Assembly (NCBI GenBank): GCA_973895155.1 | Contig: OZ316899.1 | Coordinates: 5,893,241 to 5,957,240 of the forward strand | Source of the DNA: Marsupella aquatica | Taxonomy: Eukaryota; Plantae; Marchantiophyta | Direction: 5' to 3' | Length of the DNA: 64,000 nt | In this document: piece after piece, positions 22,624-62,663 of the stretch | How the letters are laid out: every line of letters starts with the position of its first letter | Numbering within the stretch: the first letter of the stretch is position 1 | Made by a program: the position numbers and the translations under genes | Notes under the pieces: generated by a model | Told to the model about the DNA's origin: nothing | Seen by the model: only the letters and a program-made list of their open reading frames with translations | Database searches by the model: none

Positions 22624-25600
22624 TGTCACGCCAAAAGCTTTGTCCTTACACAAATTTGGCTTGGACGGGCATAATCTTCATTAGTTTTGAGGGTTCGGGC
22701 AAGGAGGGATGTGCAAACTGAACCTTACTCCCGTAATCTAGTGCTAAGTGCGCCTAGTCCTACTTACATAAATATCATGGGTATAGTTTGTGTTCCACCG
22801 CCGGAGCATACCTTAAGTCGATAGCTGGATTGACCCCTGGCTTAAGGACTTCTAAGCCTTTGTGTTGTCTGCCTTTGATCCGAATCCGATGATACGGGTG
22901 TCCAACCCGGGCTCGCAACCACTATCCGCAGCCGACACCCCGTGCCTAGCTCGGAGAATGCGTTTGGCCAAGCATTCTCTACCCGTATACGAGATTCATA
23001 CATGCAACTGAATTTGCAATCATTCAATCTCGGTTTACACGAAGGAAATAGTGGGAAAAGACTTTACTTCAGAATCCATCATACACATATACACGGTTGA
23101 CTCAACATCTCTTGAGTGAACAGGCCCAACGGCAGAGAGGCATACACTACAATGGAGCCCGGCTCCGCACTCGCCCAACAAGCTTAGTCGTACCCTCCCT
23201 CCTTGATGCTCTTTTACTCACAAGGGCCGGGACTCCCTGCACATCCTACGGATACCCGGTTCTAGAACTAAAATCCCCCACTGCCTCTATCGGGGGTGCA
23301 CTAAATACTAAGAGCCGGGGCCCGGAGCGGCCACATGCTCAAGTCTATGGTATCCAAGATTCTAACCTCTGCTAACTGTCAGGTTGTAAAACGGCGTGTC
23401 TTATTCTAAGATTCTAAACTACAAAGGTCGGTCGGATAGGACAGCGCTGCTAACTAGTTTTGGCGCTTGTCCTTATTGTCTCACTTCCCTAATCCTAACT
23501 CTATCCTAAACCTACTTCGTCGCTAATGTTTGGCATGCTTGCCAGACCCGCCAAGTTGGATTTGGAGCGGCCATTCCGCTGCCTCTTGAGCCGGTGGCGT
23601 CCTGCTTGAGCAACCGGACTTGGTCCAGCAGAGATTTGTTCTCTTGCTTTGCCGCGTTCGTCTCCTTCGCGGCTTCCTGGCACGCCTCTTCCAATTGTTG
23701 GGCGTCGCTCATCAGATTGTCCACCAATTGGGTGTGCTTTGTGGCTTCTTCTTGAAGCTGTGCCACCTCCGCCTTCAGGGCGTCCACCTCGGCTGCGTCT
23801 CGCTGGGCCTGGGCTTTGGCTTCTTCCACATCCTTTTTCCAGATGACGGCTTGTCCCTTCAAACTATCAATCTGGGTTTGAAGCTGTGTGATCTCAACAT
23901 CCTTCCCGGCTCCGGCCTGTTCTGCCAAGGCTTTCCGGGCCCCAGCTTCGGCCACTTGCTCCAATGTGGCCGCTAACTGAGGTTGCAGCAGTTGAAGTTT
24001 GGTTTCTCGGGCTAAGGCTTTGTTTATCAGGTGGGTAGCCTCAACCCGATACCACTCTATCTTCCGCACAAGCTCAGCCTGCGTATGCCCTGCTTGTACT
24101 GCCGCAACCAATTCTTGGTTGAAGAAGTAGGCCACCTTTTGTGCCATGAACTCCATTGTATCCCGCGCAATTTGTTGGGAGAAGTCACCCAGCAAACCAT
24201 TCAAAAACGTGCCCGGTGCAAAGAGTTTTGGGCACTCGAGGCTATGCCCACTCGGATTTGGGCAAGGATAGACCCCAGCTCGCACGGGAGTTGGAGTGGT
24301 GACATCCAGTCCCTGAACTATGAAGACGGAGGGGGATGGGTTCTCCGCAAGGGTCGGGGAATTCTCCTGGACAGCCATGGAGGGTACCGGGGTGTCCTCC
24401 GTAATCATAGTCTTGGGCCCAGCTTTGAGGGTCGCGCTGGCCTGGTTGATCGAATCCAAGGTTGCAATAACGGCATCGTCCGGTACAGAAGGAGGGGCGG
24501 CAGCGGCTGGTTGCAAAACCGGGGTAGTTGTGGGCCCCACGGCAGCCGGACTTCTAGCCTTGGGTTGGGGTCGCCTTTCTTGGGCCAGGAATACCCACCA
24601 TGATGGGGTTAGCTTGGGCTTGTTCAGCCGGGGGAGGTTTTGGCAGTCAAAACGGGCGTACCACTCGATGATTATTTTGATGTGGCTTGCAAGGTACGCC
24701 TTCCCACCAAGGTACAAGGTCTTCCTTTGTTGTTCCATCTCCTCATGGAACTTCTTGACGAAGAAAGAAGCCCACTTCCTAGGCCGGTAGTTCTTGACCT
24801 GGATTACTTGGGCGACAAATATCTTGCCCCTTGGCTCCATCATGTGGAGGGCGTACCTCTGGAACTCTAGCTGCTCCGCTATCTCCAAGATGAGGCATGT
24901 CCTCATCAAGAATCCGTTGTCCACTGCTCCTTTGGTCGGGAAGCTAGAGGACTGATACTTGGCTCCCTTGCCCCCAGGAGCCCGTGATTCTACCCGATTT
25001 ACTCCTTTGGATAGGGCGAAGATCAGCTTGAGCCGTGCCTTGCTTAGGGACATCACTCTCCCATGTGCACGGGTTTGTTGGCAGGCCTTGTCAAAGTTTA
25101 TTGACAAACTCCGTCATATCCTGCCCATAGTACCTGCAAGTATTCCAAGGGAGAGCGGCGAGGTGCTCAAACCCTTGGGTCTTTAGATAGCATGCATGCT
25201 TGGGTGGAGAATGTTCTTGTGGACATTCTCCCCCATGCAATGCATGGTCAGCTTGGCCACCGCAATTGTGGCCAAGGGCAGCCCGGATACAGCCGCGGGT
25301 TCCTTCCTCTTCCTACCTTGAGACTGGTTCCCGGGGTGACTCGTAGAGGGGGACATCTCCCCGTCCTCTCTATCAGGTGGTGGCAGTGCTACCACCATAA
25401 GTACCGGTGCTGGGGCCGCCACTTTCACCGCGTTGTCCATTGGGGCTGCCGCGTGGGTTTGTTGATGCATTGGAGCGGTACCCAACCCAGACCCATAAGG
25501 ACCTAGTAGACTGTAGTTAAGGGGAGGGGCCTCCTTGTCCTCCGAGCTGAGGTTGACTGCATTCGCCACGGACCGCACTCGGGCAGATATATTGTCAAAG

Positions 25601-26392
25601 TGATGACGTTGGAGATCTACTGTGCCTGGGATCCTGAAAACTTTGTCCAGGAGTCGGAGGAGCGCTTCTCCAAAGCCGAGGTACTTTGGGTCGTTGAAGA
25701 AGAATTTGGTGATCTCCTTGTTCCGTAAGTGCTTGCTCTCAAATGGGAGACTGAAGTCATTGTTGTAGTGTGAGCGCACGTTTCTATGGATCAGTTCTTT
25801 GTACTCTCTCTTGGCTTTGTATCTGCATGGATTGTGTCCGGCGAGTGATTTTGCAAGATGGCTCCCGATGTGTAGAAATTGAAACCAAAAATGAATGGCG
25901 GAACTGGACATAACCGTGACCGACATAAGGCGTGGTGTGTATGATTGCTCCAAGGAAAACTAGAGAGGTTGGGATCAAAGCTGTTGCGCGGAGTGAACTA
26001 GTGGCCCAAGACAGGGAAGAGCTCACCTTTTATACTCTTGTGGTGTGTCGACCGATTGGTTCCTCTTGCCTGTGATAGGCCGAGCCCCTCATGCTTGGGG
26101 GGTACCGACCACTCTGCAAGTCCCGGTTAGAGCATGCTAGTGGGCCGTCTCCGGATCTGTTATACGGATCCAAGGCAGACCGCCATAACGCTCCCTTAAT
26201 CCGGCGGTACGTCAGGTGCCGTGCCGCCAGCTCGAACACGAATCCCCATTATTACTAAATCTTGTCCTAAACATCATGACTAGCTAATTTGTGTCTTTAT
26301 ACTAATAACTATGGGCTACTAAGTCTACTTCCAACGTACGTAACACGGGTTAAGCGGTATTACTCATTACCAGCCGTGCTGGCGGCGTCATA
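22624..26392 (-). mobile_element. Older, diverged solo giant LTR (3769 bp) inserted in chromovirus integrase
   Basis: Starts TGTCACG and ends CGTCATA; TSD CAAGG/CAAAG (one mismatch); the uninterrupted target site is visible in copy B near 57240-57260. Confidence 0.85.
23523..25926 (-). pseudogene. LTR-encoded protein, diverged and frameshifted copy
   Basis: MSVTVMSSSAIHFW start homologous to MSHTILSSSAIRFW; shares RVESRAPGGKGAKYQSSSFP, LEFQRYALHMMEPRG and the C-terminal coiled coil. Confidence 0.88.
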
Positions 26393-41829: not shown

Positions 41830-43854
41830 TCAAAAATCTGACGAATCATCCGACGAAACACTGAGGGTCGAAACACGCGATTTAACGGCACCCGCGCAAC
41901 TATCCTCTGCTCTATCCGCATCACCGGCAGTGGACCATGGGCCATTCACAACGGCTGCACAAGCGGACGTGTCTTGGGTTTCCAACAATTCAATCGCACT
42001 GGAGGCGACTTGTACCAAGGCGGCGACACCTGACGTATTTGAGTTTCCCGTATCCCTACCCCGAGTAGACTCTCGCTCTTCTTCCTCAGAGAGCCGCGGG
42101 TACAGAAGTGAAATAGCCCCTTTGATGATAGTCGTTGCTGACTCTTCAAGGTCCTCTTTGAGACGAACATCTGTTCTATCCTGCACCGTAGACAAATGTT
42201 TCGCAGGCGCTTGCGAAAGATCGGTGGCAGAAAGCACCCGATCTTGGTTGTCCTCGAGCCCAAATACAACCGCCGTCGCTCCATTCATGCAATCATTCGA
42301 CGGAGCACTTGTTGCACCTCGAAGAAGCATGTTTTCGGAATCCTGCCCGACTAGGGTTATCGTGCTCGAGTCCACAGGTTCTGATTTGAGGGCAACAATC
42401 TCATTACCTGAAGCCACCGTGTCGTGCTGTTGTGAAACCTTGATGCGACTGCGCTCACCAGACGGCTTCGACTCGAGCTTCACGCCTCGATAGTCGATAA
42501 GCTTGAGTTCCTTTAATAGAAGAGAACGGGGTCTTGTCTGTTGCTGCTTCATCTGCAAGCGAGGCTCACTTTCTGTAGGTAAACCCAGACGCGGCCACGA
42601 GACGACGGCATGAGATGCATTGACAATCACTGCCGGCTTCGTCGAGGCTTTCCTCCGTAGGGGGGTTAGGCCACTGCAAATTCTGGGAGAACTGTTGATT
42701 GCGCGATGCAGTTGACGTGCGAGTTCCTCATCGTCGATAGACGATAATTTAGTAACAGAAGAGATTCCGAAGCCTTCGGTCCTCACCTCGGTCTCCACCG
42801 GCCTTTCTTTCCTAAGTTGGCATTCGGTACCATTGCCTTTAACATCACCGACAGCAGTGCGTTCTGAAGAAAGGGAGTTTCGGCGCATTTCATCCCGAAC
42901 CTGAGCCTCAACTCTTGCAGCGAGTGCAGCGGCATCCAAAGCCGCTCTAGCAATTGCTGCTGCTCTAACAGCAGCAGCAGCCTTCGCGGCAGCAGACGCC
43001 TTGGCAGCGGCGGCCGCCCTACCAGCGAGGGCAGCTGCGGATGCAGCAGCGGCGGCTGCGGCTTCTTTCGAACTCGAATTCTTGCGTCCCAACAAGACTG
43101 TCGTACTGTTAGAAATTTCTTCAAATTGACCAACGTCATCCCCTTCCACACCACTCGACTTGCTCCGAGACTCTCGCGAAATTCTGAGTTTCTTATTATA
43201 TGGGTTTGAGCAGTCGGCCGCGGCAGGTGCCGCACAATTTTCTGCTTCGGTCTTGGAGGCCAAGTCCGGACCCACTGGTGGCGCTCCAGTGCTCAGAAGA
43301 GCATTCGCATGTTCCTCAACCCTAGTTACATCGACACAGTCTAAACAAACGTATGGGACCCCTTGAGCAAGGATTCTTTGCTCGCAGTCCACATGCAAGA
43401 CACGGTGGCATCGGCGACATTCCAACCAGCCTTCCGGGTCTTTCACACCAGGATAAACTCCTTCGCAGCGACAGCAATTCAAATTCTTATGAAAGGAAAA
43501 GTTGCAGAAATCGCAGAGGCGCTGAACCACGCCATTGCGTTTCTCTTTCCTCCACACACCGCTCTCCGGCGCTCCACAACTCATGCAATCTTTCGTCTCC
43601 ACGGTGAGACTTTCTCGGTTAGAACTTCGTATATCAGACCCTGTCCCAGCTCCAACTAGGCCTCCTCCGTCTATTCTTTGGAGAGACGTGTGGCCAGTTG
43701 GTGACCCTGGGCTGGATGACGCTAGCCATGATCCATTTTGCTTCAACCCAGCTAGCAACCTCTTTCTTGGTGGTAGGGAACCTCCGACCATCCGTGCCCC
43801 TGTTCCCTCCCCTCCATCGATAGCTCCACTTACCATTGCCTCGCCTTCCGCCAT
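41830..43854 (-). CDS. Host nuclear protein (674 aa) with a GATA-like zinc finger, a PHD finger, an Ala-rich helix and LPPRKRLLAGLK / DEELARQLHRAINSSPRI motifs
   Basis: Uninterrupted ATG-to-TGA ORF. CMSC-x20-CDFC with WR, then CCRC..CRRC..HVDC..CLDC. The two short motifs are ones I recall from plant PHD-finger-like proteins; orthology not verified. Confidence 0.85.
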   Translation of the reverse strand: MAEGEAMVSGAIDGGEGTGARMVGGSLPPRKRLLAGLKQNGSWLASSSPGSPTGHTSLQRIDGGGLVGAGTGSDIRSSNRESLTVETKDCMSCGAPESGVWRKEKRNGVVQRLCDFCNFSFHKNLNCCRCEGVYPGVKDPEGWLECRRCHRVLHVDCEQRILAQGVPYVCLDCVDVTRVEEHANALLSTGAPPVGPDLASKTEAENCAAPAAADCSNPYNKKLRISRESRSKSSGVEGDDVGQFEEISNSTTVLLGRKNSSSKEAAAAAAASAAALAGRAAAAAKASAAAKAAAAVRAAAIARAALDAAALAARVEAQVRDEMRRNSLSSERTAVGDVKGNGTECQLRKERPVETEVRTEGFGISSVTKLSSIDDEELARQLHRAINSSPRICSGLTPLRRKASTKPAVIVNASHAVVSWPRLGLPTESEPRLQMKQQQTRPRSLLLKELKLIDYRGVKLESKPSGERSRIKVSQQHDTVASGNEIVALKSEPVDSSTITLVGQDSENMLLRGATSAPSNDCMNGATAVVFGLEDNQDRVLSATDLSQAPAKHLSTVQDRTDVRLKEDLEESATTIIKGAISLLYPRLSEEEERESTRGRDTGNSNTSGVAALVQVASSAIELLETQDTSACAAVVNGPWSTAGDADRAEDSCAGAVKSRVSTLSVSSDDSSDF

Positions 43855-47069: not shown

Positions 47070-48993
47070 GGGAGAGATCTCCTCACGGGATTAACTAAGT
47101 GTATAATTTGGGGTACCACATGCGATCATAGTCTAGTATAAATAGACCTTTTATAAAAAAAATATTCAAAAAATATTCTCCATTTTCAATATTAATAACA
47201 TATTTTACTTTATAAAAGATATATATTAGCAAATATTCTATAAACATCTACACACTATAATATGTGATCCCGCTTCTTTTCGAGATTTGTCTGCTTATGA
47301 ATTCAAAAATGGGCGGGACCAAATTGTGTCCATTGGATTGCAAGGCGTTTTTCTAGAGCCGTTCAATGAAAGAATAAGCCTCTCCCCAAATACCGTTTCA
47401 CACAGGGCAATTCGTCCTCCCTTGCCAGGCTTTGGTACAACCACGTACATTTCCTCACTGGCGTTGCCACATCATCTTTGCTTGCAACACTTTGGTCCAG
47501 GCGTTCTAATGCGTTGGCTGGTTCAGGGCTCCTCGGCCGTGCTTGCTCATCTCCTTTCATTTTGTGCCACATCATCCTTGCATGAAACACCTTGGTCCAG
47601 GCGTCTTGCCTGACAACCAGCTCACGCAAGAGATTGGGGCGGTTGCGAGGCGAGGAGGGAGTCGAGCAACAGCAGGAGGGAAGCAAGTGGCAGCCCTCTT
47701 GAGGCAGGAGGGCAGGAGCTGTGGAGTCAGGGTGTCGAGTGGCAGCCCTCGAGAGGCAGGAGGGCAGGAGTACTTGATGGTAGACTGGGAGGGAGGGAGG
47801 CCGCATGTCAGGAGGGAGACCGTGCATCAGGAGGGAGGCGAGGGGCCATCAGGAGGCGCAAGGCCATCAAGAGGGAGGTGAGGAGGCGGCCAGGGGCAAG
47901 GCAGCCCTTGCGAGGCAAAAAGGAGGCAAGGGGGTGAGGTGGCAAGGGTTGAGGCAGCCCTCGCAAGGCAGGAGGGGGAGCGCACGTCAGGAGGGGGAGT
48001 TGAGGCAGAAGGGAGGCATGCGTCAGGAGGGAGGGATGGCAAGGCACCAGGTGGTGAGGGGGCTGCCCAGGAGTACACTCGCCCATCAAGGCGAGTACTT
48101 GCTTTCTCCCTATGCGAGAAAGTACCCACCATGATGGGCGAGTACTCCAATGGGCCCTAGAGCGAGGGAGGCCAGGGAGGGGAGGAGGGCGCTTGCGGTG
48201 GGAGGCGAGGGAGGCAGCGACCGAGATTGGAAGGGTGTTAGAAGGGTGCACCCGCTTTGGCCATGCGTGGAAGACGGGCTTGAATGGGCGTCAGAATGGC
48301 TTTGGCCATGCGTGAAGTAAGGAGCACGGAGGGCACTGGGCGTCGAGGGATTTCCATCTCCGGTCGACGCCCTCCTGGGGACTTGACGTTCATCTCGGGC
48401 CTGACGCACATTCCCTGACATGCTCATGCCCAAAAGTGCCAATCCCATCTCCGGTCGACGCCCTCCTAGGGACTCGACGTTCATCTCGGGCCTGATGCAC
48501 ATTTTCCCTGACATGCTCATGCCCAAAAGTGCCGACGCGGCCCGACTCACACTCCTAAGTCCAGGCACGGTGCACAGCATTCATTGAAGTAAGTCGCTTG
48601 CGTTGCAACCATGCCCAATTTTCCTTGTCTGTCTTGGTTGGAGGCCAAAAATACATGGCAAAAGTGGTTCGAGGGTGGTAGCACCCCATAAGCATATATA
48701 AGGGGACCTAAGCTTTTGGAAGTGAGCAAGAAACCGCCAGTGAATGGGATACGGCCAGTGAATGGGATACGGCTAGAGCATTGGAAACAAAGCTAAACGG
48801 CCAGTGCCAAAGCATGGGAAACAAAGGGAAATGGCCAGTGCAAGGGATGGAAGATGGGTGCCGGCCAAAAAAAATGGGTTTTGCCAATGATAGGAATTTT
48901 TTGGGAACTACTTCTAATTTTTGTGTTGCCATGGGATGTGGACCCTGTGGGAAATTTTGGGGACCCCTTTAAATGGGAGACACTTGGGGAGAA

Positions 48994-51900
48994 TGTCACG
49001 TCGTAGGCTTCGGTCTTAACTCAGACTTCAGCTTAGACGGGCACATCCCTCGTAAATCTGAGGGTTCGGGCAGGAAGGGAAGCACGTAATGCACCTTATT
49101 CTCGTAAACTAGCGCTAAGTGCGCATACTGCTAAATACAGACACCTCCTAGGTATGGTTTGTGTTCCGCCGCCGGAACGTACCTTAGTCGATAGCAGGAT
49201 CGACCCCGGCTTAAGGGCTTCTAAGCCTTCGTGCTGTCCGCCTTCGATCCGGATTCGATGATACAGGTCCTCAACCCGTGCTCGCAACCACTTACCCGCA
49301 GGCTGCACCCTGTGCACGTCTCGGGTAGTGCGTTCGGCCCGGCGCTGCCACCCATATATGAGAAACCCACACACATATGCGCACACATGCATACAATCTC
49401 GATTTACACGAAGGAAAAATGATGGGAAAGGATTTTACTACAAAGGGAACATATGCGTACACTTAGTTGACACGACAGCCCTGGAATGCACAGGTTCAAG
49501 GCCGAGGGTGCACACTACAACGGAGCCCGGCTCCGCACTCGCCCGGCGAGCTTAGTCCTACCCCCTCCCCTTGGTACTCTGTCATTCCCAGAGGTCGGGA
49601 CTCCCCGCATGTCCCGCGGATGTTCGACTCTGAAACTAAAAACCCCCCCCCTTGCCTCTACCGAGGGGTGCACTAAATACTAAGAGCCGAGGAACGGGGT
49701 GTCCTCTCGCCAAAGATTCGCTGACTAAGGTCCTAACTAAGCTGACAGTCAGGCCGGAAAACGGCTGTGTCTTATTAGAAGATCCTAATCTACGCAGGCT
49801 GGACAGCAGGGCAGCGCTGCTGTACCTAAGGCAGGTGCCTGTCCCAAGAGCCTGACTAAGCCAATCCTAATCCTAATCTATTCCTACTCCGCCGCTAATG
49901 CCTGGCACGCTTGCCAGAGCCGCCCGAATGGGAACGGCCATCCCGCTGCCTTCGAAGCCTGTCATTGTCCGCTTTGAGGAGCTGGACCTGGTCCAGCAGA
50001 GATTCGTTCTCTCGCCTCGCCGCGTCCGTCTCCTCTGCTGCCTCCTGACATGCCTCCTCCAGCTGCTGGGCGTCGCTCGTCAGTTTACTCGCCAGCTGGT
50101 CCTGCTTCTCGGCCTCGGTTTGGAGCCGCGCCATCTCGGCCTGCAGCGTGGCTATCTCCGTCACGTCCCGCTGGGCTCGCTCCTCGGCCTCCTCCAGGTC
50201 TTTCTGCCAGGTGACAGCTTGTTTCTTCAAACTGTCAATCTGGTTCCGGAGTCGTGTAATCTCGGCCTCGTTCCCAGCTTTGGCCTGTTCGGCTAGGGCG
50301 GTAAGAGCGTACGCCTTTGCTAACAACTCATCGGCGGCTGCAACCTTGGGTCGTAGTTGCAGAAGCTCAGCCTCTTGAGCTGCCACTTCGTTCTTTAGGT
50401 ACACGGACTCCACCCGGTACCGCTCTATCCTCTGAAGGGCCTCCGACTGGGCCCGACCTGCCTTTACGGCGGCAACCAACTCCTGATTGAAGAAACAGGC
50501 TACCTTTCGGGCCATGAACTCCCCGGTATCCCGGGCAACTTGATGAGAGAAATCTCCTAGAAGCCCGTTCAGAAACGTACCCTGTACGAAGAGTTCCGGG
50601 TGGTCCAAGTTGTGCCTGTCCGGATTTGGGCACGGGCAGACATCAACACGCGCAGGGGCCGGGGCAGTGACGTCCAGCCCTGGGGACATAACGTTGGAAG
50701 GGGCTGGAGTGTCCTCCTGCAGCGATGTCCGGTTCTCCGGAATTGCCACCGGCGGGTCCTTGGGAGACCCGGGTTCGGGTAAGACCTCTGCCGTACCAAC
50801 TTCTATACTTAGCCCGGCTAGTTGGGTCGCATCAACGGTTGCGACGACCGACCCCTCCGGCGCCTCCTCGGTTATGATTACAGCTATTTGTGGAGGTGGG
50901 GTGGGTGAAGCTGGCGTGTCCACTGGACTTCGGGCCTCGGGTTGGGGCCGTCTCTCCAATGCCAGAAAAACCCACCTAGCTGGGACCAGCTTTGTAACGT
51001 TGATGCGGGGAAGGGTTCGTCGATCAAACCGGGCGTACCACTCAAGAATGATTTCGATATGGCTAGCGAAATACGCCTTCCCGCCAATGTATAGTGTCTT
51101 CCTTCGCCGCTCCATCTCTTCATGGAATTTCTTAGCGAAGTACGACGCCCATTTCCTAGGTCGATAGTTCTCGACCTGGATAACCTGGGCGGCGGAGATC
51201 TCCCCCCGGGGTTCCATCATGTGGAGAGCGTACCTCTGGAACTCCAGCCGCTCAGCTATCTCGGGCATGAGGCAGGTCTTCATCACGAACCCGTTGTCTA
51301 CTGATCCCTCTGAGGGAAAACTTGAAGATTGGTACTTGGCCCCCTTGCCCCCGGGAGCCCGTGATTCGACTCGATGGTCACCTTCGGGTAACCCGAAGAT
51401 CATCTTGAGCCGTTCTTCTGTGAGGGACATATTCCTTCCCCGCAGCCGAGTCTGTTGACGTACGTCGTCATAATTCTTGACGAATTCTGTCATGTCCTCC
51501 CCGTAGTACCTGCAAGTGTTCCAGGGGAGAGAGGTGAGGTGCTCAAATCCCTGAGTCTTCAGGTACACCGCATGCTTGGGATGGAGGATGTTGCTATGAA
51601 CGTTTTCCCCCATGCAATGCATCGTCACCTTGGCTACGGCTACCGTGGCCAACGGTAACCCGGATGCAATGGCGGATTCCTTCCTCTTCTTTCCCCGTGA
51701 CTGACTCGAGGAAGGTGATACTTCCCCATCCTCCCGATCGGGCCTGGGGAGTGCCACTGCGGTTGGTAACGGGCCCGGGGCGGCCACGGTCACTATGTTG
51801 TCTGCTGGGGCCGCTCCTGGGGTCAGAGCAGGGGGTGGGGACGATATAGTGTCGGCCCCCCGCGCGCTTGTTCCTCTGGGCCGCCTGGTCAAGGGTGGGG

Positions 51901-53003
51901 TAGCCTCGTCGTCATCGCTAAGATCCACAGCGTTGATGACGGAGCGTACCTGTGCTGGCTGGGTGATAGGTGGTGGGGTTTGGCTAGGCTGAGGCTGAAG
52001 CTGAAGTTGAGGCTGGGGTTGCATGGGCACGGGTACGGGTACGGGTACAGGTCCGGCTGAGTTGGTCATGTTGGTTGATGGCCGAGTTCCCATGAAGCTC
52101 TGCAGGTGCTGGTAGAAGTTCTCCGAAGCGAGTGCGGACGCCCTTGTCGAACGGTTGGTACTGGACTCGCCGTTAATGACAGCTCGAACCTGGGCAGGGA
52201 TGTGGTCGAAGTGATGTCGCTGCAGGTCGATTATACCCGGGATATTGAAGACCTCGTCCGGAAGCCGAAGCAATGCTTCCCAGAACCCGATATATTTGTC
52301 TCCGTTGAAGAAGTACCCAGATACCTCAGCTGGTCGGTAAAGCTCGCTCTGAGACGGGTAGTCAAAGTTAAGGACGTAGTGGTGTCGTCCTGCTAGGCGG
52401 ATGGCTCTCTCATATTCGCGTTCGATCTCGTATTGGCGCGGGTTGGCGTGTTTCAATGAATCGGCCAAGTGCCTTCCGGTAGATAGGAACTGCGTCCAGA
52501 ATCGAATGGCCGAGCTGGAGAGGATCGTGTGCGACATTCAGAGGAGATAGTAGTGGCGACCTAGAGAGAACGAGAGAGCTGGGGTCGAAGCTGGCGCGCG
52601 GACTGATGGACTGGTGCACTACAAAGGGTTGGCTCCCCTTTTATACTTTGAGGGCTTGTCGATCCCCGACGTCTCCTCGACGCCCATAGGTTGAACCGCT
52701 CACGCTTGTGGTGTACCGGCCACTCCACCGGTCTGAGTCAGCGTGCGTCAGTGGCCGCTTCCTTAAGTTCGTTATACGGACCCGAGGGAGGGGCCCCTCC
52801 ACGCTCGTAACCCGGGTGTGCGAATAGCGACCCGCCGCCAGCCCGAACCTGAAGTCCCCCTTATTGCCTAATGATGTCCTACCCCTAATGATTACCTAAA
52901 TACTGTCGTTATGCTAATAATAGCGGCCTAAGACCCACCTAACGCGCGTGCCGAGCGCAGTTAGACTGAATCACTCATTAACCGCCGTACCGGCAGCGTC
53001 ACA
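48994..53003 (-). mobile_element. Solo giant LTR (4010 bp) with an intact internal gene
   Basis: TGTCACG...CGTCACA flanked by perfect 5-bp TSD GAGAA (48989-48993 and 53004-53008); no gag-pol on either side. Confidence 0.95.
49895..52537 (-). CDS. LTR-encoded 880-aa protein: plant-transposon (Athila-ORF/Transposase_32-like) central domain, NLS-like and SIM-like motifs, C-terminal coiled coil
   Basis: Open ATG-to-TAG frame lying wholly within the solo LTR. Central segment GFEHLTSLPW..EDMTEFVKNY..RLRGRNMSLTEERLKMIFGLP; RGKKRKE; AVDLSDDDE; heptad-rich last ~160 aa. Family assignment by eye only. Confidence 0.88.
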   Translation of the reverse strand: MSHTILSSSAIRFWTQFLSTGRHLADSLKHANPRQYEIEREYERAIRLAGRHHYVLNFDYPSQSELYRPAEVSGYFFNGDKYIGFWEALLRLPDEVFNIPGIIDLQRHHFDHIPAQVRAVINGESSTNRSTRASALASENFYQHLQSFMGTRPSTNMTNSAGPVPVPVPVPMQPQPQLQLQPQPSQTPPPITQPAQVRSVINAVDLSDDDEATPPLTRRPRGTSARGADTISSPPPALTPGAAPADNIVTVAAPGPLPTAVALPRPDREDGEVSPSSSQSRGKKRKESAIASGLPLATVAVAKVTMHCMGENVHSNILHPKHAVYLKTQGFEHLTSLPWNTCRYYGEDMTEFVKNYDDVRQQTRLRGRNMSLTEERLKMIFGLPEGDHRVESRAPGGKGAKYQSSSFPSEGSVDNGFVMKTCLMPEIAERLEFQRYALHMMEPRGEISAAQVIQVENYRPRKWASYFAKKFHEEMERRRKTLYIGGKAYFASHIEIILEWYARFDRRTLPRINVTKLVPARWVFLALERRPQPEARSPVDTPASPTPPPQIAVIITEEAPEGSVVATVDATQLAGLSIEVGTAEVLPEPGSPKDPPVAIPENRTSLQEDTPAPSNVMSPGLDVTAPAPARVDVCPCPNPDRHNLDHPELFVQGTFLNGLLGDFSHQVARDTGEFMARKVACFFNQELVAAVKAGRAQSEALQRIERYRVESVYLKNEVAAQEAELLQLRPKVAAADELLAKAYALTALAEQAKAGNEAEITRLRNQIDSLKKQAVTWQKDLEEAEERAQRDVTEIATLQAEMARLQTEAEKQDQLASKLTSDAQQLEEACQEAAEETDAARRENESLLDQVQLLKADNDRLRRQRDGRSHSGGSGKRARH

Positions 53004-53738
53004 GAGAAGCTAAGAGGATACCATAGGGGCAAGAGACAACTTGGAAGTAGGATGATTGCCTTGAAGGTTGGGAGGGGGAGACGAGGCCGGGGTCCTGGTA
53101 TGCAGTATCCTTCACGGATATTGGGTCCCCATGAAAGTTTCAAGTCTCTTGCAACAGTGTGGCCCAGTCGGCATTCAATATACTTAGTTAGGGGTCTGTC
53201 AAGCTTGAATGATTTGGGGTTTTGAAAATACTCATCTATTTTGTGGGTTGGATGCAGATGATTAAGGGGGTTGGAATTTTTTGCGCAACATGAGAACTCT
53301 GGGGGAGAGATCAGAGGCAAATTGTGAGCGATATGCTAAGAACAAGGATGTCATAAATGCAAGGCATCACCAACAATATGCCCAACAAAGATTGCAAGTG
53401 GCAAATGGTGTGCCCCAGGTCCATGCCGCACCGGAACAAAGTGTCTCACCTAGTGTGGGGCCCTCAAATCCAGCAGTAGTTCCCACACCATGTGTGCCAA
53501 CTGTGGTAGAAGAACCAAGCGCCATTAGTGGGAGACAATTGCGACGGGAAGCAAGGGTTGTACAAGGGGCATCAACAACATCATTGGCCGCCATTGAGGA
53601 GACAACTTTGGGACCTACCGCAGTGCCTGGTCCTGCAAGTAGTGTGAGACAATTGCTTCGTGAAGCAAGAGCAATGCACCAGGCATCGGCCAGTTCCATG
53701 GCCATCGCGGCCAGTCGAGAAGGTGCCCCAAGTGCCTT

Positions 53739-55037
53739 AGTTGCAGAACACAGCTACCTTAACACTTAGCTCCAACGTCGTTGACTCAACGCCGAGCTCC
53801 CTTATGGTCCAGGTCCGAATAGACCATTTGGGGAGGACTTAGCATGGGGAAACTTGTGGGCAATGGGAAGTGGCGCTATCAAAGGCAAGGCGCCAAGCTG
53901 GTGTCACGCACTAAGGCATTAGACTAGCTGAGAGCTGGTCGGGTCAAGGGGAAAAGGGCCAGGCTCAAAGTTGACCATCTGGACCCCCGAACGGACTTTG
54001 AGTTTTGAGGGCTTGAGTGAGAGCTCCTCTTGGGCCCAAGGCCAATGAAGTTGACGCCATGGGCAACGGACGTTTGGGGCGCAAGTTATGGCCCAATCCG
54101 GGTTGGGCCGATTGGGGGCCCCAAGCGCCAATGAGATCTGAGGTCCTAGGCATGAGCACTGGGTCGGCCCAATCACAATGGGCTAAGGCACTCCGCTTGC
54201 GGATGCCTAACTAGGAAGTTATGGGCGTTGCTAGTTGGGGGGATGTTTCCGTTGGAGGATTTCTTGGGTGCATTGGAAAGCTATCAAGGAGGGATACATC
54301 CTCCTGAGCTTAGTTGGGTCTAGGGGCACCGTAGGTTCTTGAGGTTTGCGGGTACTATCTTGCCCGCTTGCCAAATCCTGCTGAAATAGCAGCCAAACTG
54401 CGTTCAGTCTCTCAAGGGAATTTGCGTTGGGAGGCAAAGCCAAGTAGGCGCGGAGGTTGAGTTCCAAGGGCACTTGGCCCCTAGACCATCAGTGGGGCAA
54501 GAACCGGGAGTTAGTTGCTAAAGTCGGGGCCATTATGGTTCCGACGTGTAGGGACAAGCTTAGGACAAGCTTTAGGACAAGCTATACTACTTGGGCCATG
54601 AGCATGTCCTGGGGTCAGGGCGGTCAGTTGGTGATGGATAGGTACGAGGGGGAACCCGGGCCACGTCCAAGGAAGGAGCTGTTATGGATGAACAATGGGC
54701 GTCGGTTCTGGTTCCGGCTTATGGCATAAGGAGGACCTATCGTTGACCTACTTATCAATGTGTGTTGAGCTTGAGTTAGCATACTAGACTTGGGGAGATC
54801 TAGATCCTGAAAGGTTACTTACCAAGACGCTTGGTTGCTTGTGCAGATAGTGAGGACCATTGAGTAGCGGTCATGTTGGAGAGCAAGTGCAGCTTTGTAT
54901 GGGAGGGGCCGCTCATGGTGCAAGGGGCACTAGGTTGCTTGCTTGACAAGGTATTTTGTGGAGGTGTTCGGGCACCGGGGGCACTTAGGCATGGGTGTTG
55001 GGATTGGTGAGGGCGTTGGGTGGCAGGGTCCACCACT
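53739..55037 (+). mobile_element. Chromovirus solo LTR (1299 bp, internal deletion)
   Basis: AGTTGCAG...CCACCACT with TSD GCCTT/ACCTT (one mismatch). Confidence 0.87.
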
Positions 55038-55150
55038 ACCTTGGACGCATGTGTGATTGACCACCCTTTGCAGCAATTTGTTCTTACCCCTCCACGTGAG
55101 CCCATACCCAACAATGAGCCCAAAGATCCCAATGTCTTTGATGAGGATTG

Positions 55151-58100
55151 AGTGGTGGACCTTGCCACCCAGCGCCTTCACCAATCCCAACACCCACGCC
55201 TAAGTGCCCCTAGTGCCAGAATGCCTCCACAGAATACTTTGAGCAAGTAACCTAGTGCCCCTTGCACCAACCCACGGCCCCTTCTATACGAAGCCGCACT
55301 TGCTCACCAACCCGACCGCTACTCAACAGTCCTCACTGCCTGCACAAGAAACCAAGCATCTCGGTAAGTAATTCTTCAGGATCTAGAACTTGCCAAGTCT
55401 AGCATCCTAGCTCAAGTTCAACGGACGTTGGTAAATAGGTCAGCGATAGGTCCTCCCAATGCCATAAGCTCGGCTACTGTTCGGCAGGATTTGGCAAGCG
55501 GACGAGCTAACACCCGCAAACCTTGAGAACCCATGGCACCCCCAAACCCAGATAAGCTCAGGAGGACGTAGCCCTCCTTGAGAGCTTTCTAACGCACCCA
55601 AGAAGTCCTCCAACGGACTTCCGTTGGGAAGATATTGCCGTTTCCGTTTGACGCTTTCCCTTAGTGTCGCGACCGCCGCGGCTCACGACTTCAGCTCGTC
55701 TTTGGCCCCCAGGGAGACACCACTCCCCTCATATATGCTTTTGGAGACCTGCCACCCCCGGACCAACTTTGGTCCCTAAACTTTTGGCCTCCAACCCGGA
55801 ACCTATCGCGCATACTGGGCGCACCATTAACTGGCAATGCCCATAACTTTCTCGTTAGGCGTCCGCAAGCGGAGTGCCTTAGCCCGTTGTGATCAGGCCG
55901 ACCCAGTGCTCATGCCTAGGCCCTCAAGTCTCATTGCCGCTCAGGGTCCCCAATTGGCCAAACCCGGATCGGGCCATAACTCACACCCCAAGCGTCCGTT
56001 GCCCATGGCGTCAACTCCATTGGCCTTGGGCCCAAGAGGAACTCACACTCAAGCCCTCAAAACTCAAAGTCCGTCCAGGGGTCCGGACGGTCGCCCTTGA
56101 GCCCAACCCCTTTTCCCCTTGACCCGACCAGCTCTCAGCTAGCCTAAGTCCTTAGTGTGTGTCACCAGCTTGGCTTGTTGCCTTCGCTAGTGCCACGTCT
56201 CATTGCCCACGAGTCTCCCCATGCTAAGTCCTCCCCGAATGGCCTATTCGGGCCTAGACCATAAGGGAGCTTGGCATCGAAGTCAACGACACCGAAGCTA
56301 AGTGTTAAGGTAGTTGAGTTCCGCGACTTGCACCGCCCTTAAAAATGGTCACGTCCGCGTGACCTCTGTAAACTTTCAAGCACGCCTAGACCAATTTAGC
56401 TCTTACAAATTTTATGAGGTAACAAATGGTTTGCCCATAAGGCTGATGCAAACCAGGTTGGTGTGCACATTCCAGACTTAGGAAATTCCAACCTATCCCA
56501 CTTATCCAAGTAGGATGCCAGACCAAGCGGTTAAGCTAACTCCAAACTTGTCGGACCCATTGTCCTCCCCTTGGGGTACTCCCCTTTGGTTTGAACCAGC
56601 CCGCCCACAAATGTAAGGCGGGCACCATCAACTTTCACTCGCGAAAAGCAAATCGGCCGCCTAACAACCTCTAGCACCAACACAATCTGACTTTATCCTT
56701 AAGAGGCCGAGAGGAGTGTAACTAGGATACAACTCACAAAGGTAGCTACAGTTGCCTGTACCAGTTCACAACGGCGATAGGCCGCTTTGCTTACAATAGC
56801 TTCCAAGGATCTCTGAGGCATTACCCAAATTTTCTTCTGGTTCCCAAGTACTCTCAGCCTAATCATAGCCAGCCCACTTCACAAAATACTCTAAGATTTG
56901 CCTTCCAAACTTGCGTTTGTAACGGTGGTCCAAAATTGCCTCCACCTCAAACTCCTCTGCGTCCTCCATCAGCATGGCATCCGGACGTAGGACCTGATCC
57001 CGGTTGGGTCATTGTCTTTGACAAATTTCTTGAGCCGGCTAACATGGTAGCTTTTGCCCACGCCCATTTCTTTGGGTGTCTCCAATGCCACCAAAACCGG
57101 ATTACCCTTGTGGGCCCATCGTATGATGCAATAGGGCCACGTATCTGGGAGCCAGCTTCCTACTTACGTTCCCGCAGTATTGCTCAGGTCTCAATTGCAA
57201 CCACACGCTCTCCCCAATTTCAAAGCTTACTTGGCGTCGATGTTAATCCCCTTGCTCCTTGTACTGACTTTGGGCAAGGGTCATACCCTTGGTAGCCGCT
57301 TCCACAACTAGGCGTCGCTCTCAAATAAAATTGTCGGCAGAAGGAACCTTGTTTTTTGTCTGCCAAGCTTCTGGATTTATGAACCAGGAGGGCCCCCTTG
57401 GCATCCTCCCTGTGGCCAACACAAATAGCGCAAACCCTGTCGCCAAATGCTTGGTCGAGTTATACCTAAACTCGGCCATAGTTAAGTGCTTTGCCCAATC
57501 CTTTTGATTGGCCGTCACAAAGTGACGCAAGTAGTCCTCCACGATACCATTCACCCATTCTGTTTGGCCATCTGTCTCGTGATGATACGCTGATCCCCTA
57601 GTAAGGTCCCTTCCTGATAACCTGAACAATGCCTTCCAAAAATGGCCCGTGAACTTGGTATCGCGATCAAAAAGGATATGCAACACTAGACCAGCAACCT
57701 CTCGGGCCGAAACCATTTTTGTAGTCGGCAAGAAATATGTCATCTTGGAAAAATGATCCATGATTGTTAAGATGGAGTTACTGCCGTGGGACTTGGGTGA
57801 TCCAACAATGAAGTCCATGGAGATGGACTCCCATGGAGCTGCAGCTACTCGTAAGGGTTGAAGAAGTCCTCCTTTTGCCCTATAGATTGTTTGGTTCTTT
57901 TGGTACAAGTAACAACTTTGCACATGGCGAAGGACCAATTGCTTCATGTTCGGCCAATACACATCTCGCGACATACTGCAATACATAGCAGCTTGTCCAC
58001 CATGCCCTCCCCAGGGTGAGTCATGGTACTTTTGCAGAACCTCTAACCTTAGGGACTCTAGGATGTACACACGCCTTTGCTTGTATTGCCATAAGTGGAC

Positions 58101-61100
58101 ATTATGCGCGGTATCTAACCCTAACAAAACGTGCCTTACCTTGCCTTGGCTACCCCCATTGCTTTGCCATTCCTTACCTAACCTGTCATCCCCATATGCC
58201 TTGGCTAGAACCTTTGGCCACTCGGATTTGAGCATCGTGATCCCATTAACACAATGATGGTCCTTATGCGATAACGCGTCAGCTGCCGTGTTTGTCTTCC
58301 CCGGAACGTGACGGACTTTGAAATTGAAATCCGCCAAGAACATCTGCCAGCGTATTTCCTTGGGGTTCAGTCTTGGCTTAGAACTGAAGTACTCGGCTGG
58401 CGAGCTATCTGTGTGTATTACCACTTTGGGACCGTTCTTAAGGTAAATCTCCCACTTCTTCAACGCATAGATTACAGCATACATTTCCCTTTCCAGTGTG
58501 ATCCAATGATTTTTCAACTTACATGACTCAAAGGCCATAGGACGCCCATCTTGGTGAAGACAGGCGCCAATGGCATAATCACTTGCGTCTGTCCAAATCT
58601 TGAACGGCTTCCCCATCTCAGGTAACTTTAGAACCGACGGCATTATCATTAGCCGCTTAAGTTCTAGGAATGCTAACTCGCAATCCTGTGTCCACACAAA
58701 CACTTTGTTTTTCAACATTAGCGCGTTTAGGGGCCTCGCGATCCTTGCATAGTCTTTCATGTATCTCTGATAGAACCCCATAAATCCTAAGAAGGCTCTA
58801 ACCTGCCTTACATTGGATGGGCGCTCCCATTCTTTGATCTCCTTAAGCTTGTCTTGACTAGGCGTAATCCCCTCTGGGGTAAAGGTATGGCCGAGGAATT
58901 GAATCTTGTTCATCGCAAACTCGCACTTACTAGGTTTAGCAAAGAGACGAGCCTTATGAAGGCGAGAGAACACTTCTCTGAGCAACTGCTCATGGTCCTC
59001 CAATCTTTTCGAGTAGATTAGGATATCGTCAATAAAGACGACCACTCCTTGGTCCAACAAGTCATGAAAGATGGTATTCATCATCTTCATGAACGTTGCG
59101 GTTGCATTACACAACCCGAACGGCATAACCAAAAATTTGTAGGATCCAAACCTTTGCGCATCACAGTCTTATACTTGTCTCCCTTAGCCATGCGGATTTA
59201 GTAATACCTAGACCGCAAGTTCACCTTTGAAAACTTCTTAGCCCCGGAGAGGCAATCCAAGAGGTCAACCATATGAGGTAACAGGTACTTGTTCTTTATT
59301 GTCTGCTTATTGAGGGCCCGATAATCTGCCCACAATCTCAAAGTACCATCCTTTTTGGACACAAACAGCGCGGGCGCCCCATAAGGACTCTTACTAGGAC
59401 GAATGAACCCTTGGTCGATCAACTCTTCCAAGGTGTTCTTCAACATCATTCGTTTGTTCAAGTTCAGATGATAAGGAGCTTTAGCCTGAGGAGCCGAACT
59501 TGGCTCCAACTCAACTTGATGATCCACTTCTCTCCACGGGGGTAAGCCTTTAGGTAGCTTTTGCGAGAGTACGTCATTGAATTCCTCTAAAATTTCAGGA
59601 ATTTGACCGCAATCGGGCCCGACCTTAGCTGACTTAACCTTTGGCTGCAAAGCAGCCTCCTTAATTGGGTGGAGATGAAAGAAGAAACATTCATGTCCAC
59701 CCTTGAAGTCAGTGGTGGACCTGGCCACCCAGCACCCTCACCAATCCGAGCACTTATGCCTAAGTGCCCCTAGTGCCCGAACGCCTCCACGAAATACCTT
59801 GAGCAAGTAAACTAGTGCCCCTTGCACCGCCAGCGGCCCCTCCCATACGAAGCCGCACTTGCTCTCTAACATGACCGCTACTCAACGATCCTCACTATCT
59901 ACACAAGCAACCAAACACCTCGGTAAGTAACCCTTCAGGATCTAGAACTTGCCAAGTCTAGCATCCTAACTCAAGCTCAACAGACGTTGGTAAATAGGTC
60001 AGTGATAGGTCCTCCCGATGCCATAAGCCAGAACCAGAACCCACGCCCACTGTTCGTCCTAAACAGCTCCTTCCTTGGGTGCGGCCCGGGTTCCCCCTCG
60101 TACCTATCCATCACCAACTGACCGCCCTGACCTCAGGACATGCTCATGGCCCAAATAACATAGCTTGTCCTAAAGCTTGTCCCAATACGTCGGGACCAGA
60201 ATGGCCCCGACTCCCGAATCCAACCCACAATTTGCACTACTGATGGTCTAGGGGCCGAACTCTCTTGGGGCTCCACCTCCATACCTACTTGGCATTGCCT
60301 CCCCAACGCAAGCTCCCTTGGGAGACAGAACGCGGCTTGGCTGCTGTTCGGCGGGATTTGGCAAGCGAGCGAGCTAACACCCGCAAACCCCAAGAACCCA
60401 AGGTACCTCCAGACCCAGTTGAGCTCAAGAGGGCGTAGTCCTCCTCAAGAACTTTCCAATGCACCCAAGAAGTCTTCCAACAGACTTCCCGTTGGGAAGA
60501 TATCCTCATTTCCGTTTGGCGGTTTCCCTTAGTGTCGCGACCGCCGCGGCTCACGACTTTGGCTCGCCCTTAGACCCCAGGGAGACACCACTCCCCTCAT
60601 ATATGCTTCTAGAGACCTGCAACCCCCGGACCAGATTTGGTCCCTAAACATTTGGCCACCAACCCGGATCCCATCGCGCATCATGGGTGCGCCACCAACT
60701 GGCAATGCCCATAACTTTCTTGATAGGTATCCGCAAGCGGAGTGCCTTAGCCCATTGTCATCGGGTCGACCCAGTGCTCATGCCTAGGCCCTCAGGTCTG
60801 ATCGCCGCTTGGGGCCCCTGACTGGCCTAACCCGGATCGGGCCACAACTTGCGCCCCAAGCGTCTGTTGCCAATGGCTTCAACTCCACTGGCCCTGGGCC
60901 CAAGAGGAGCTCACACTCAAGCCCTCAGAACTCAAAGTCCATCCGGAGGTCCGGATGACCATCCTTGAGCCCGGCCCATTTCCCCTTGACCCAACCAAGT
61001 CCTTAGTGTGTGCCCCCAGCTTGGCTCCTTGCTTTGCTAGTGCCACGTCTCATTGCCCACAAGTCTCTCCATGCTAAGTCCTCCCCGGATGGCCTATCCA

Positions 61101-62663
61101 GGCCTGGACCATAAGGGAGCTTGGCGTCGGAGTCAACGATGCCGGAGCTAAGTGTTAAGGTAGTCGAGTTCCGCGACTAAGTCTTTCCACCATTGCTTTG
61201 TCAATACACACTGAGACAACCACGACACTTTACTTACTTTGAGACATCTTTCTTTATTGTCGTTAGTTTCATGTACAACAATGGGCTCACCGCCCTTATT
61301 GGGAGAATGGAGCACCTCATCCCCTGGTTTCAAGGTAACATTTGTGCTTTCTTAGATAACCTACCGACAAAATCAAGTCTACGGCTAGAACGTAGAACAT
61401 CTCTTGACTAACAAAATTTTGTTATTTGCCTATGACCTCTACTCAAAGTCTATGTACTACTCTTGACACTATCCCTTTTGTGTCGTTGGCAAACTTGCAC
61501 ACTAACGGTTGTAGCAACTCTTGCACGTCCACCCCCAAGACGTGCCACCGCCTGCCAAGTTATGAAGCAGGCGGTCGCGCCCGTATCCACCAAAGCAACA
61601 CCCAAATTACTGTTAGAAGTGACATTCACAAAAATCAACTTTTCAGGATCCCTTGTCTTAACTCTAGGTATCTTCTCTCGCAACAACACCTTCTCTCCGG
61701 TAGTAACATCCCCTATAGGGACCTTGTCAGCTACTAAGGATTTGGTTAGAGCAATACTTACCTTAATGCTCTTTTGCCCTCCATCTCCGCTCGGCTTGCC
61801 TCCCTTCAAGGTGCAGTCCTTACTTTGATGGCCCATGGCGCCACACATGTAGCACAAACATTCAGCCCGCCTCTACTTCATGAGCGCCTACTTCTTTGCT
61901 TTCTGCGCCAATGAGGTTCCTTTCTTGAAGTTGCCGGCCTTCCAGTTTTGCTTTGCTTCTCCATTTTGGGGCAGGGGATCCAAACCACCGGCTCCTGCCC
62001 CCTCAGGTTGCTTACGCTTATTCCTGGGACCTTTCGCTTTCCCAGCTTCCCCCTCGGATCCCTTTCCACACACCTTCGCCAAGTGTGGCCGGTTATGCAC
62101 CAACGTAGTGGCCTTGTCAAAGGCATCAGAAAGCGTTTTGAACTCTTGACGCTTTTCCTGTAACTTTTCCCTGAGCAACGGCGGGAGCTTCACTATAAAG
62201 TTGTGAAGTTGCGTATGTAGGGTCTCTTGCCCCGCCGGGATACACGCTAACTGGTTTTGGTAATAAGTGAGGAACTTTTGGATATCACCCCTTAAGCTCA
62301 TTTTCGTTACACATTTTTGCGCTTGCCGCTCCGGGTACTTGGTGGTGACATGAGCACGGAGATCCTCAACCAGGTTTTCCCAAGTTAACGGCAAGGAGGA
62401 GTCCTCTTGCAACTTCTTCCACGACTTGTACCAAGTCAAGGCATAGTCCTTCAGGTAAGGAGCGGCTGTAGTAGCCCAAGTGGAATGCTCAATGCACGCT
62501 TGGAGATGAATATATCTCCATCGTGGAGAGCCAACTCAGGAACTTTTGTCCACTTTGCTCATAGGCCCCGTCAGGTTGGGGGACGGTAGCTGGTTCACTT
62601 GGAACATACTCTCTCCAACTACCATTCCCCCCTTGGGACGCGTCGCACTCTGACTACCCAGAC
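55151..62663 (-). mobile_element. Chromovirus copy B: gag-PR-RT-RNaseH-INT-chromodomain and 3' LTR (55151-56328); 5' LTR not in view
   Basis: gag 61888-62625, CYMCGAMGHQSKDC, LVDTGAT, FIDDILIYS, WTDASDYAIG, WESISMDFI, chromodomain ~56790-56960, purine tract ~56333-56342. Confidence 0.93.
59711..61178 (-). mobile_element. Chromovirus solo LTR (1468 bp) inserted between protease and RT of its own family
   Basis: Perfect TSD AAGTC (59706-59710 and 61179-61183); termini AGT...ACT. Confidence 0.93.

Follow-up and report, generated by a model that had tools for sequence, protein, structure and literature searches.

The window analyzed in this study is a 64,000-nt stretch of Marsupella aquatica DNA (contig OZ316899.1, positions 5,893,241 to 5,957,240 of the forward strand). 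On its minus strand lies a solo long terminal repeat (LTR) of 4,010 bp (copy 2; 48994-53003), which starts with TGTGAC, ends with GTGACA, and is flanked by GAGAA target-site duplications that can be read in the sequence at 48989-48993 and 53004-53008. The TG...CA ends and perfect duplication reported in the initial annotation were therefore confirmed, as was the presence on the sense strand of an open reading frame (ORF) that fills about two-thirds of the unit (2,643 of 4,010 bp, 66%). This intact 880-aa ORF (49895-52537, minus strand) is identified by its open frame, its dN/dS values, and its relatives. Upstream is a candidate TATA box, GTATAAAA (52640-52645, minus strand), which is the same in all three full-length copies in the window. 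The common geometry that had been described for these copies also held: TATA(A/T)A was located at unit positions 359, 360, and 359, in each case with the ATG 108 bp downstream, and the noted interval of about 900 bp from the stop codon to the LTR end was 901 bp in copy 2 and 895 bp in copy 1, with the aligned stop of copy 3 at the equivalent place. The 901-bp noncoding 3' part of copy 2 (48994-49894, minus strand) is strongly conserved; it has candidate hairpins and a TTAG-rich tract, whereas a search of the 3' part of the LTR for another well-conserved TATA box was negative.

The cognate Ty3/gypsy element is represented by a decayed gag-pol region (1-5076, plus strand) that encodes protease, RT, RNase H, and integrase and has no chromodomain. 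Its 3' LTR (copy 1; 5044-9057, plus strand) is oriented in the sense of pol, lacks a target duplication, and is 91.4% identical to copy 2 over the whole length; its ORF (5511-8162) contains three in-frame stops. Copy 3 (22624-26392, minus strand; 3,769 bp), located within a chromovirus, is a solo LTR that is older and belongs to a diverged subfamily. It starts with TA, not TG, its flanking 5-bp duplication has one mismatch, and its ORF is broken by an in-frame 240-bp deletion and by frameshifts. Copy 4 (38918-39232, plus strand) is a 3'-end fragment recognized by its similarity to the LTR. Among the three full-length copies in the window, only copy 2 has an open frame. Scans of metagenome and viral contigs recovered no locus of the element.

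The initial annotation regarded the 4-kb unit as a gypsy LTR, noting that integrase and a polypurine tract precede copy 1. Both are present; however, the candidate tract (5031-5040, plus strand), which is a sequence reading with 9 purines in 10 positions and ends three bases before the TG, is short, and the integrase frame crosses it and ends 11 codons inside the LTR. The TAA that immediately precedes the LTR is not the integrase stop, since it sits in a different frame. In a full element the first 33 bp of the LTR (52971-53003, minus strand, in copy 2; frame read in copy 1) thus supply the last 10 codons of pol and its stop codon, which is retained in all three copies, and the internal region has no room for an extra ORF after pol. 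Self-BLAST (word size 7) found no terminal direct repeats of the TRIM/LARD type in the three copies, and 5-bp target duplications are present at both solos (copies 2 and 3) and absent at copy 1, the end of an element. Because the pol frame ends inside the unit, the solos carry duplications, and terminal direct repeats are absent, we conclude that the unit is an LTR, as had been proposed. From the way in which LTRs are copied, each full element is inferred to hold two copies of the gene. The suggestion that LTR-LTR recombination leaves behind a cassette of TATA box and ORF is also upheld by the window, where two of the three full-length copies are solos with 5-bp duplications.

On the sequence evidence, the ORF is a genuine gene at the level of the family. 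Its dN/dS was 0.29 (0.21 to 0.37) between copies 1 and 2, 0.17 to 0.20 against copy 3, 0.31 to 0.41 when transition bias was allowed for, and 0.09 to 0.25 in the middle domain; the dN/dS check suggested earlier therefore gave values well below 1 (0.17 to 0.41), which shows that the family is under purifying selection. The frame was kept or restored only in part across indels (7 of the 10 listed against copy 3, plus a net 9-bp gain in copy 1). An index-free search of 1.84 billion representatives yielded 42 relatives at an E value of ≤0.001, and those that are named come from the liverwort Calypogeia. A word-indexed homologue search gave no match to the whole ORF and none among longer proteins, and its profile version returned only two proteins, both already known. 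One relative, P0043 (906 aa), can be aligned across ORF aa 8 to 869, and both globular domains were detected in 8 of 56 proteins by profiles made from these very proteins; judged from these alignments, the architecture is kept across relatives. Paired Calypogeia accessions were set aside as possible LTR pairs, their genomic context being absent. Annotations currently list ORFs of this kind among host genes ("unnamed protein product").

The encoded protein comprises an N-terminal helical domain (aa 1 to 120; 52178-52537, minus strand; model pLDDT, 84.8) that is common to relatives, a middle domain (aa 295 to 525; 50963-51655, minus strand; AlphaFold model pLDDT, 91.5), and a putative coiled coil (aa about 700 to 866; 49940-50440, minus strand), which is suggested by weak, sub-cutoff Pfam hits and is followed by a basic tail. 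The structural check that had been proposed showed that the middle domain resembles VANC21, the only match above noise in two programs. VIA-align gave a Z score of 8.2, which barely exceeds the common range of the tool, over 209 aligned residues (next match, Z of 2.3), and Foldseek gave an E value of 0.035 and a probability of 0.84; at 12% identity, an rmsd of 4.2, and a TM score of 0.45, the match is a distant one. The middle domain is therefore predicted from its model to have the VANC21/plant-mobile-domain (PMD) fold, and this is what is new relative to the initial annotation, which had proposed no function. Links between the VANC, DUF1985, and PMD folds have been described (PMC13547354; 10.1101/2024.09.27.615353). 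The Atlas leads for the ORF were DUF1985, PMD, and ATHILA at 0.80 to 0.82, under its 0.9 mark. No Pfam match to DUF1985, PMD, or Transposase_32 passed: the DUF1985 profile (PF09331) had no match in the ORF (E ≤ 0.1 and E ≤ 1) or in the 42 relatives (E ≤ 0.01), and of PF10536, PF03078, and PF20167 none passed, the best result being PF20167 in 1 of 43 members (E value, 0.059). The N-terminal domain had no clear fold match (best Z of 5.4, generic helical; Atlas scores, 0.75 to 0.76), a sequence search against solved structures returned coiled-coil noise only, and a search of the viral structure library gave no credible match. Basic motifs are present, and nuclear signals together with the coiled coil are predicted from the sequence; a hydropathy scan of the ORF and four relatives detected no transmembrane segment, no 19-residue window exceeding 1.41.

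Among the 21 of 444 ORF rows examined, the near-fixed private differences of copy 2 comprise eight replacement and three silent changes, a ratio that matches the replacement share predicted under neutrality (0.60 to 0.75); its departure from the family share is also nonsignificant (P = 0.14). All 11 tested private changes fall in CG/CHG contexts (P = 0.0003), and for this reason copy 2 was probably methylated after insertion; any protection would therefore have failed at this copy. The probability that no stop codon arises is 0.09 given 30 methylation-type changes, and a frame survives 10 to 20 changes by chance in 45 to 20% of cases. The observed/expected CpG ratio is 0.86 to 0.93 in the LTR family versus 0.29 to 0.65 in six neighboring repeat regions, and 0.68 in the older copy 3. 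Between copies 1 and 2 the CG:CHH ratio is low, a value confounded by divergence that preceded insertion. An excess of CG transitions is missing from the last 900 bp at the 3' end, where the odds ratio is 0.86, versus 2.9 to 5.5 in four control pairs. We did not regard this as demonstrating hypomethylation, because the divergence of the pair is partly older than the insertion, the 5' noncoding part has a ratio of 6.3, and the control pairs lack independence. Most likely, copy 2 is methylated and its frame has so far escaped disruption, and selection acts on actively replicating elements.

The noncoding 3' part is 74% identical to that of copy 3, compared with 43% at 4-fold sites. The search for a target motif arranged in tandem was negative: k-mer maxima in the noncoding LTR lie within shuffled maxima, and the sole tandem repeat in the noncoding part of copy 2 is a 6-bp unit present 4.8 times. 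A 10-mer resembling the VANC21 motif, spotted post hoc, has five exact matches, which are confined to these LTRs and represent two homologous sites; with one mismatch allowed there are nine matches against 5.5 expected, and we treat it as a lead only. The TTAG-rich tracts were likewise noticed post hoc, and the consensus RNA fold at the LTR end is based on four sequences.

This locus derives from a non-chromovirus Ty3/gypsy element whose 4-kb LTR carries an 880-codon accessory gene. We judge the chances to be about even that the product is a DNA-binding factor that works in the nucleus to shield or activate the element encoding it. The TATA box at LTR position 359 would drive transcription, and the protein would bind noncoding LTR DNA and thereby relieve host silencing of its own element, as VANC does for VANDAL transposons. 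One gene copy would reside in each LTR, and a solo would therefore retain the cassette. The counterdefense gene thus likely sits where deletion of the rest spares it, and copy 2 looks silenced.

Sharing a fold does not establish function, and the VANC21-type fold is also used by the host silencing proteins MAIL1/MAIN, which are described as taking part in silencing and as counteracting Polycomb (PMC5418596; 10.1101/2024.09.27.615353). It is accordingly possible, at somewhat longer odds, that the LTR gene has this fold and another nuclear job, such as transactivation of the LTR promoter, tethering of integration to chromatin, an anti-Polycomb role, or limitation of copy number. The missing target array, the probable methylation of copy 2, and the unmatched N-terminal domain are compatible with such a role; however, anti-silencing is the role of the one relative whose structure has been solved, and the CpG retention of the family fits, weakly, an escape from methylation. 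The initial annotation went further and suggested that the protein could continue to be provided in trans by solo LTRs, which would require that they are still transcribed and that their open frames are under selection. Copy 2 does retain the TATA box, ATG, and open 880-codon frame, a stop-free outcome has the low probability given above for 30 methylation-type changes, and variant contigs in the thousands indicate a large pool of copies. However, the private changes of copy 2 look neutral and lie in CG/CHG contexts, fewer changes would often leave a frame open by chance, and one of the two solos is broken; we consider continued supply from solos unlikely, and the claim was not sustained.

Two further readings carry much less weight. 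The 4-kb unit could be a mobile element of another kind, either separate or derived by internal deletion (TRIM/LARD-like, or a DNA element bounded by TG...CA), and could lie behind integrase by chance, given that the purine tract is short and that neither a paired 5' LTR nor a primer site is present in the window, which starts inside gag. This is very improbable, since the pol stop requires the first 33 bp of the unit, which both solos keep, and neither terminal direct repeats nor a target duplication at copy 1 is present. The sense orientation, the position after pol, the coiled coil, and the Athila-like features of the lineage would suit an env-like membrane protein of the kind put forward for Athila sense ORFs, but the low hydropathy maximum, the nuclear-type basic motifs, and the predicted DNA-binding fold make it the most remote of the readings weighed here.

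VANC21, from the MuDR DNA transposon VANDAL21 of Arabidopsis (PDB 9lnj and 9lnk), shares with the LTR protein the predicted middle-domain fold, a predicted coiled coil (PMC13547354), and the status of accessory gene of a transposon. Unlike VANC21, the LTR protein has an extra N-terminal domain and is encoded in a gypsy LTR of a bryophyte rather than in a MuDR/VANDAL DNA transposon, and that LTR lacks a detectable tandem target array; VANC has been described as dicot specific. The extra ORFs of non-chromovirus gypsy elements, namely, PMD in Ogre, Transposase_28 in Retand, and ORF-1/Transposase_32 in Athila, are also accessory genes with a coiled coil, and they and the LTR protein probably belong to one fold clan. 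Those ORFs are placed in the internal region (PMC6317226; PMC7264820), whereas the Marsupella ORF is wholly within the LTR and passes no Pfam model. An entire ORF within an LTR, downstream of the LTR promoter, is likewise described for sag/naf of mouse mammary tumor virus (PMC9412291), although this is an unrelated protein of a vertebrate retrovirus. The rice elements Retrosat2, RIRE3, and RIRE8 are also gypsy elements that carry an extra ORF, have LTRs of >3 kb, and have left numerous solo LTRs (PMC3485330); unlike the Marsupella gene, their ORF0 is described as lying upstream of gag-pol, apart from the LTR, and is not reported to be retained in solos. The 5-bp target duplication and the absence of a chromodomain and of an archaeal RNase H agree with the Athila lineage as tabulated in PMC6317226. 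The Phygy and Selgy lineages, in contrast, are described with a 4-bp duplication and no extra ORF, compared with 5 bp and an extra ORF here.

Genomes rid themselves of retrotransposon coding capacity mainly through LTR-LTR recombination. Residence in the LTR matters because here the same recombination spares the gene intact. Anti-silencing by proteins in plants is established for the VANC proteins of DNA transposons. LTR retrotransposon factors that modulate methylation were listed as uninvestigated in a 2026 paper (PMC12844716), and the gene described here, with its predicted VANC fold and its place in a gypsy LTR, is a direct candidate for such a factor. An element with 4-kb LTRs would escape LTR finders that impose small size limits.

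A broader view, which we hold to be rather doubtful, is that the LTRs of a bryophyte retrotransposon lineage, solos included, could combine a promoter, a VANC-like gene for sequence-specific anti-silencing, and binding sites, so that solo formation would spread counterdefense instead of removing it, and that the VANC/PMD fold would have originated long ago in retrotransposons, before there were flowering plants. Whether the plant mobile domain originated in retrotransposons or in host genes has been called fully open (PMC5418596), and the liverwort relatives bear on this question.

The 4010-bp unit at 48994-53003 on the minus strand (copy 2) starts with TGTGAC, ends with GTGACA and has GAGAA at either flank, and frame reading gave a single open frame of 880 codons within it (52537..49895, minus strand). 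Its ends, the GAGAA duplication and the open frame confirm the initial annotation of a 4-kb solo LTR with an intact 880-aa ORF. Self-comparison of the window identified two other full-length copies, one at 5044-9057 on the plus strand (copy 1; 91.4% identity) and an older solo LTR at 26392..22624 on the minus strand (copy 3; approximately 71% in BLAST segments), as well as a 3'-end fragment of the LTR at 38918-39232 (copy 4). Comparison of the three full-length copies bore out the shared geometry that had been proposed, with matching positions of the TATA box, ATG and stop in all of them. Only in copy 2 is the frame open: the copy 1 ORF has three in-frame stops, and that of copy 3 has a 240-bp deletion and frameshifts. 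A repeat family lies in a nested and inverted layout at 27105-29283, 37250-38913, 53736-56472 and 59703-61181, and one of its copies truncates copy 4 at 38913. The window also contains a 92-bp tandem array (3.7 copies; 17946-18322), a short tract of the plant-type telomere repeat ACCCTAA (x3.3; 19578-19600) and an intronless 674-aa host-like ORF (41830-43854, minus strand) that has cysteine-rich segments resembling zinc fingers and lacks a Pfam match above the cut-off.

Copy 1 is preceded by protease, reverse transcriptase (RT), RNase H and integrase domains, and the integrase frame crosses a short purine tract before ending 11 codons into the copy. This pol stop is kept at the same place in both solo LTRs (copies 2 and 3); therefore, the start of the unit is tied to pol family-wide and not through chance insertion. 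Target duplication is absent at copy 1, as expected for the 3' end of an element, and copy 3 interrupts a chromovirus. Alignment with an uninterrupted homologue elsewhere in the window shows that the two halves of this chromovirus meet again with a 5-bp overlap. Self-comparison found no short direct repeats at the unit ends in any of the three copies, which rules out the alternative that the unit is an element with small LTRs and an internal deletion. The pol frame running into the unit, the shared stop, the duplications and the lack of terminal repeats sustain the earlier assignment of the unit as the LTR of a gypsy element, not internal sequence, and it is very probable that the gene resides inside this LTR. 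No locus with a paired 5' LTR and primer site was found in the public contigs scanned, and the window begins within gag. Reverse transcription gives both LTRs of an element the same content; it follows from this mechanism, and not from direct sighting, that both LTRs of a full element carry the gene.

Judged from its sequence, the 880-codon ORF is a real gene. The dN/dS check proposed for the copies gave values below 1 in every interval: 0.29 (0.21-0.37) for copies 1 and 2, 0.17-0.20 against copy 3 and, after allowing for a transition bias of 4 to 7, 0.31-0.41 for the whole ORF and 0.17-0.25 for the middle domain (aa 295-525). An index-free search with aa 1-699 as the query returned 42 relatives at an E value of ≤0.001; 4 of the 10 looked up are named, all from Calypogeia fissa, and one further named relative came from another search, which makes a liverwort or another bryophyte the probable host. 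One relative of 906 aa (P0043) aligned across aa 8-869 of the ORF. The protein begins with a helical domain, which a proline-rich linker joins to the middle domain; a second linker leads to a coiled coil, and the C terminus is a basic tail. No transmembrane segment was found in its 880 residues.

No Pfam profile passed the cut-off for the protein. The AlphaFold model of the middle domain, built on a 43-sequence alignment, had a pLDDT of 91.5, and the sole Foldseek match above noise was DNA-bound VANC21, the anti-silencing protein of the DNA transposon VANDAL21 (E value of 0.035, probability of 0.84, TM of 0.45). An independent structure aligner run against 48,161 chains gave VANC21 a Z score of 8.2 (rmsd of 4.2 over 209 aligned residues); the second-best chain scored 2.3. 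The match is distant (12% identity), yet it spans the entire middle domain and has no competitor. Atlas clusters of DUF1985, PMD and ATHILA proteins at 0.80-0.82 are leads only. A VANC/PMD fold is likely for the middle domain. The N-terminal domain (aa 1-120) was modeled with a pLDDT of 84.8 and had no clear match in the fold searches. Published work describes VANC as a structural homologue of MAIN and PMD-C as resembling DUF1985 (PMC13547354; 10.1101/2024.09.27.615353), and VANC21 binds a nine-base motif in noncoding tandem repeats and removes methylation (PMC5735166).

Reviews place the extra ORFs of plant elements in the internal region (PMC7264820; PMC6317226). Retrosat2 also has long LTRs, and its ORF0 is described as lying upstream of gag-pol (PMC3485330). 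Within the literature searched, which has most subscription journals outside it, we found no plant retrotransposon whose LTR contains a protein gene and no VANC-fold protein encoded by an LTR.

The element has a 5-bp duplication, lacks a chromodomain and has no archaeal RNase H match, and on these features, not a tree, it fits an Athila-like nonchromovirus and not Phygy or Selgy, for which 4-bp target duplications are tabulated (PMC6317226). The unit was covered by DNA contigs of four public runs (8,260, 12,573, 347 and 47), with contig depth dropping sharply at the unit ends in the two richest runs; therefore, the LTR family is abundant, with the proviso that contig counts are not copy numbers and that the window itself may derive from the best run.

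The suggestion that solo LTRs could supply the protein in trans fared less well. Forty of 444 variants were listed, 21 of these in the ORF, and we took as near-fixed any change in at least 84% of the depth in both rich runs. Among the 21 listed ORF variants, 11 were near-fixed and thus private to copy 2 or to copies closely related to it. With 8 replacement and 3 silent changes, they show the split that neutrality predicts, though the counts are too low to set it apart from the family share (p 0.14). The remaining 10 comprised 6 silent and 4 replacement changes. Among the listed variants, the 11 near-fixed transitions to T or A in copy 2 (ten in the ORF and one outside, with one change of opposite direction excluded) all fell in CG or CHG and none in CHH, a context that accounts for roughly half of the C and G positions (p 0.0003); copy 2 was therefore probably methylated after insertion. 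The frame would survive by chance in 45-20% of cases after ten to twenty such changes and in 9% after thirty. Because the private changes look neutral, methylation is probable and the frame may be open by chance, supply in trans is disfavored for copy 2, and active supply from solo LTRs is unlikely.

The CpG observed/expected ratio was 0.86-0.93 for this element, 0.98 for a host-like gene, 0.29-0.65 for six neighboring repeat regions and 0.68 for the old copy 3; codon-junction CpG followed the same trend, but its intervals overlap for chromovirus pol. This retention of CpG indirectly supports escape from methylation. Three kilobases from the VANC-like element lies a second gypsy element (12284-16533, plus strand) with a C5 DNA-methylase domain ahead of its RT (PF00145, E value of 1.7e-8). 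It is stripped of CpG only (CpG ratio of 0.29, CHG of 0.98; no NCG among 88 NCN codons), and we take it to resemble the methyltransferase-bearing retrotransposons of algae, although its host is probably a land plant. A decayed CACTA-type transposase (PF02992; 32118-35481, plus strand) also has strong CpG loss.

Two layouts of the LTR can be considered. One has the gene in U3 and a second promoter within the last 900 bp, the arrangement of MMTV sag (PMC9412291); in the other, position 359 is the sole promoter and R or U5 holds the gene. A search of the last 900 bp turned up no conserved second TATA box. This stretch matches copy 3 at 654 of 889 positions, a much higher conservation than at four-fold sites (101 of 235), and may fold into hairpins, as predicted from four sequences. 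Strand-biased TTAG clusters lie at 52869-52942 and 49639-49898 (minus strand) and at the corresponding positions of copies 1 and 3. In all three copies, the first cluster follows the pol stop and the second the stop of the LTR gene; an AATAAG-like hexamer accompanies each, and the second contains an invariant 20-bp block. These clusters could act as 3'-end signals or as sites for protein binding.

We propose that the TATA box at LTR position 359 most likely drives transcription of the gene and that the gene product would enter the nucleus, oligomerize through its coiled coil and bind noncoding DNA of its own element through the middle domain. No tandem target array was found in the LTR, which counts against a VANC-like anti-silencing mechanism. 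The protein would oppose silencing of the element that encodes it, a role for which we consider the prospects evenly balanced.
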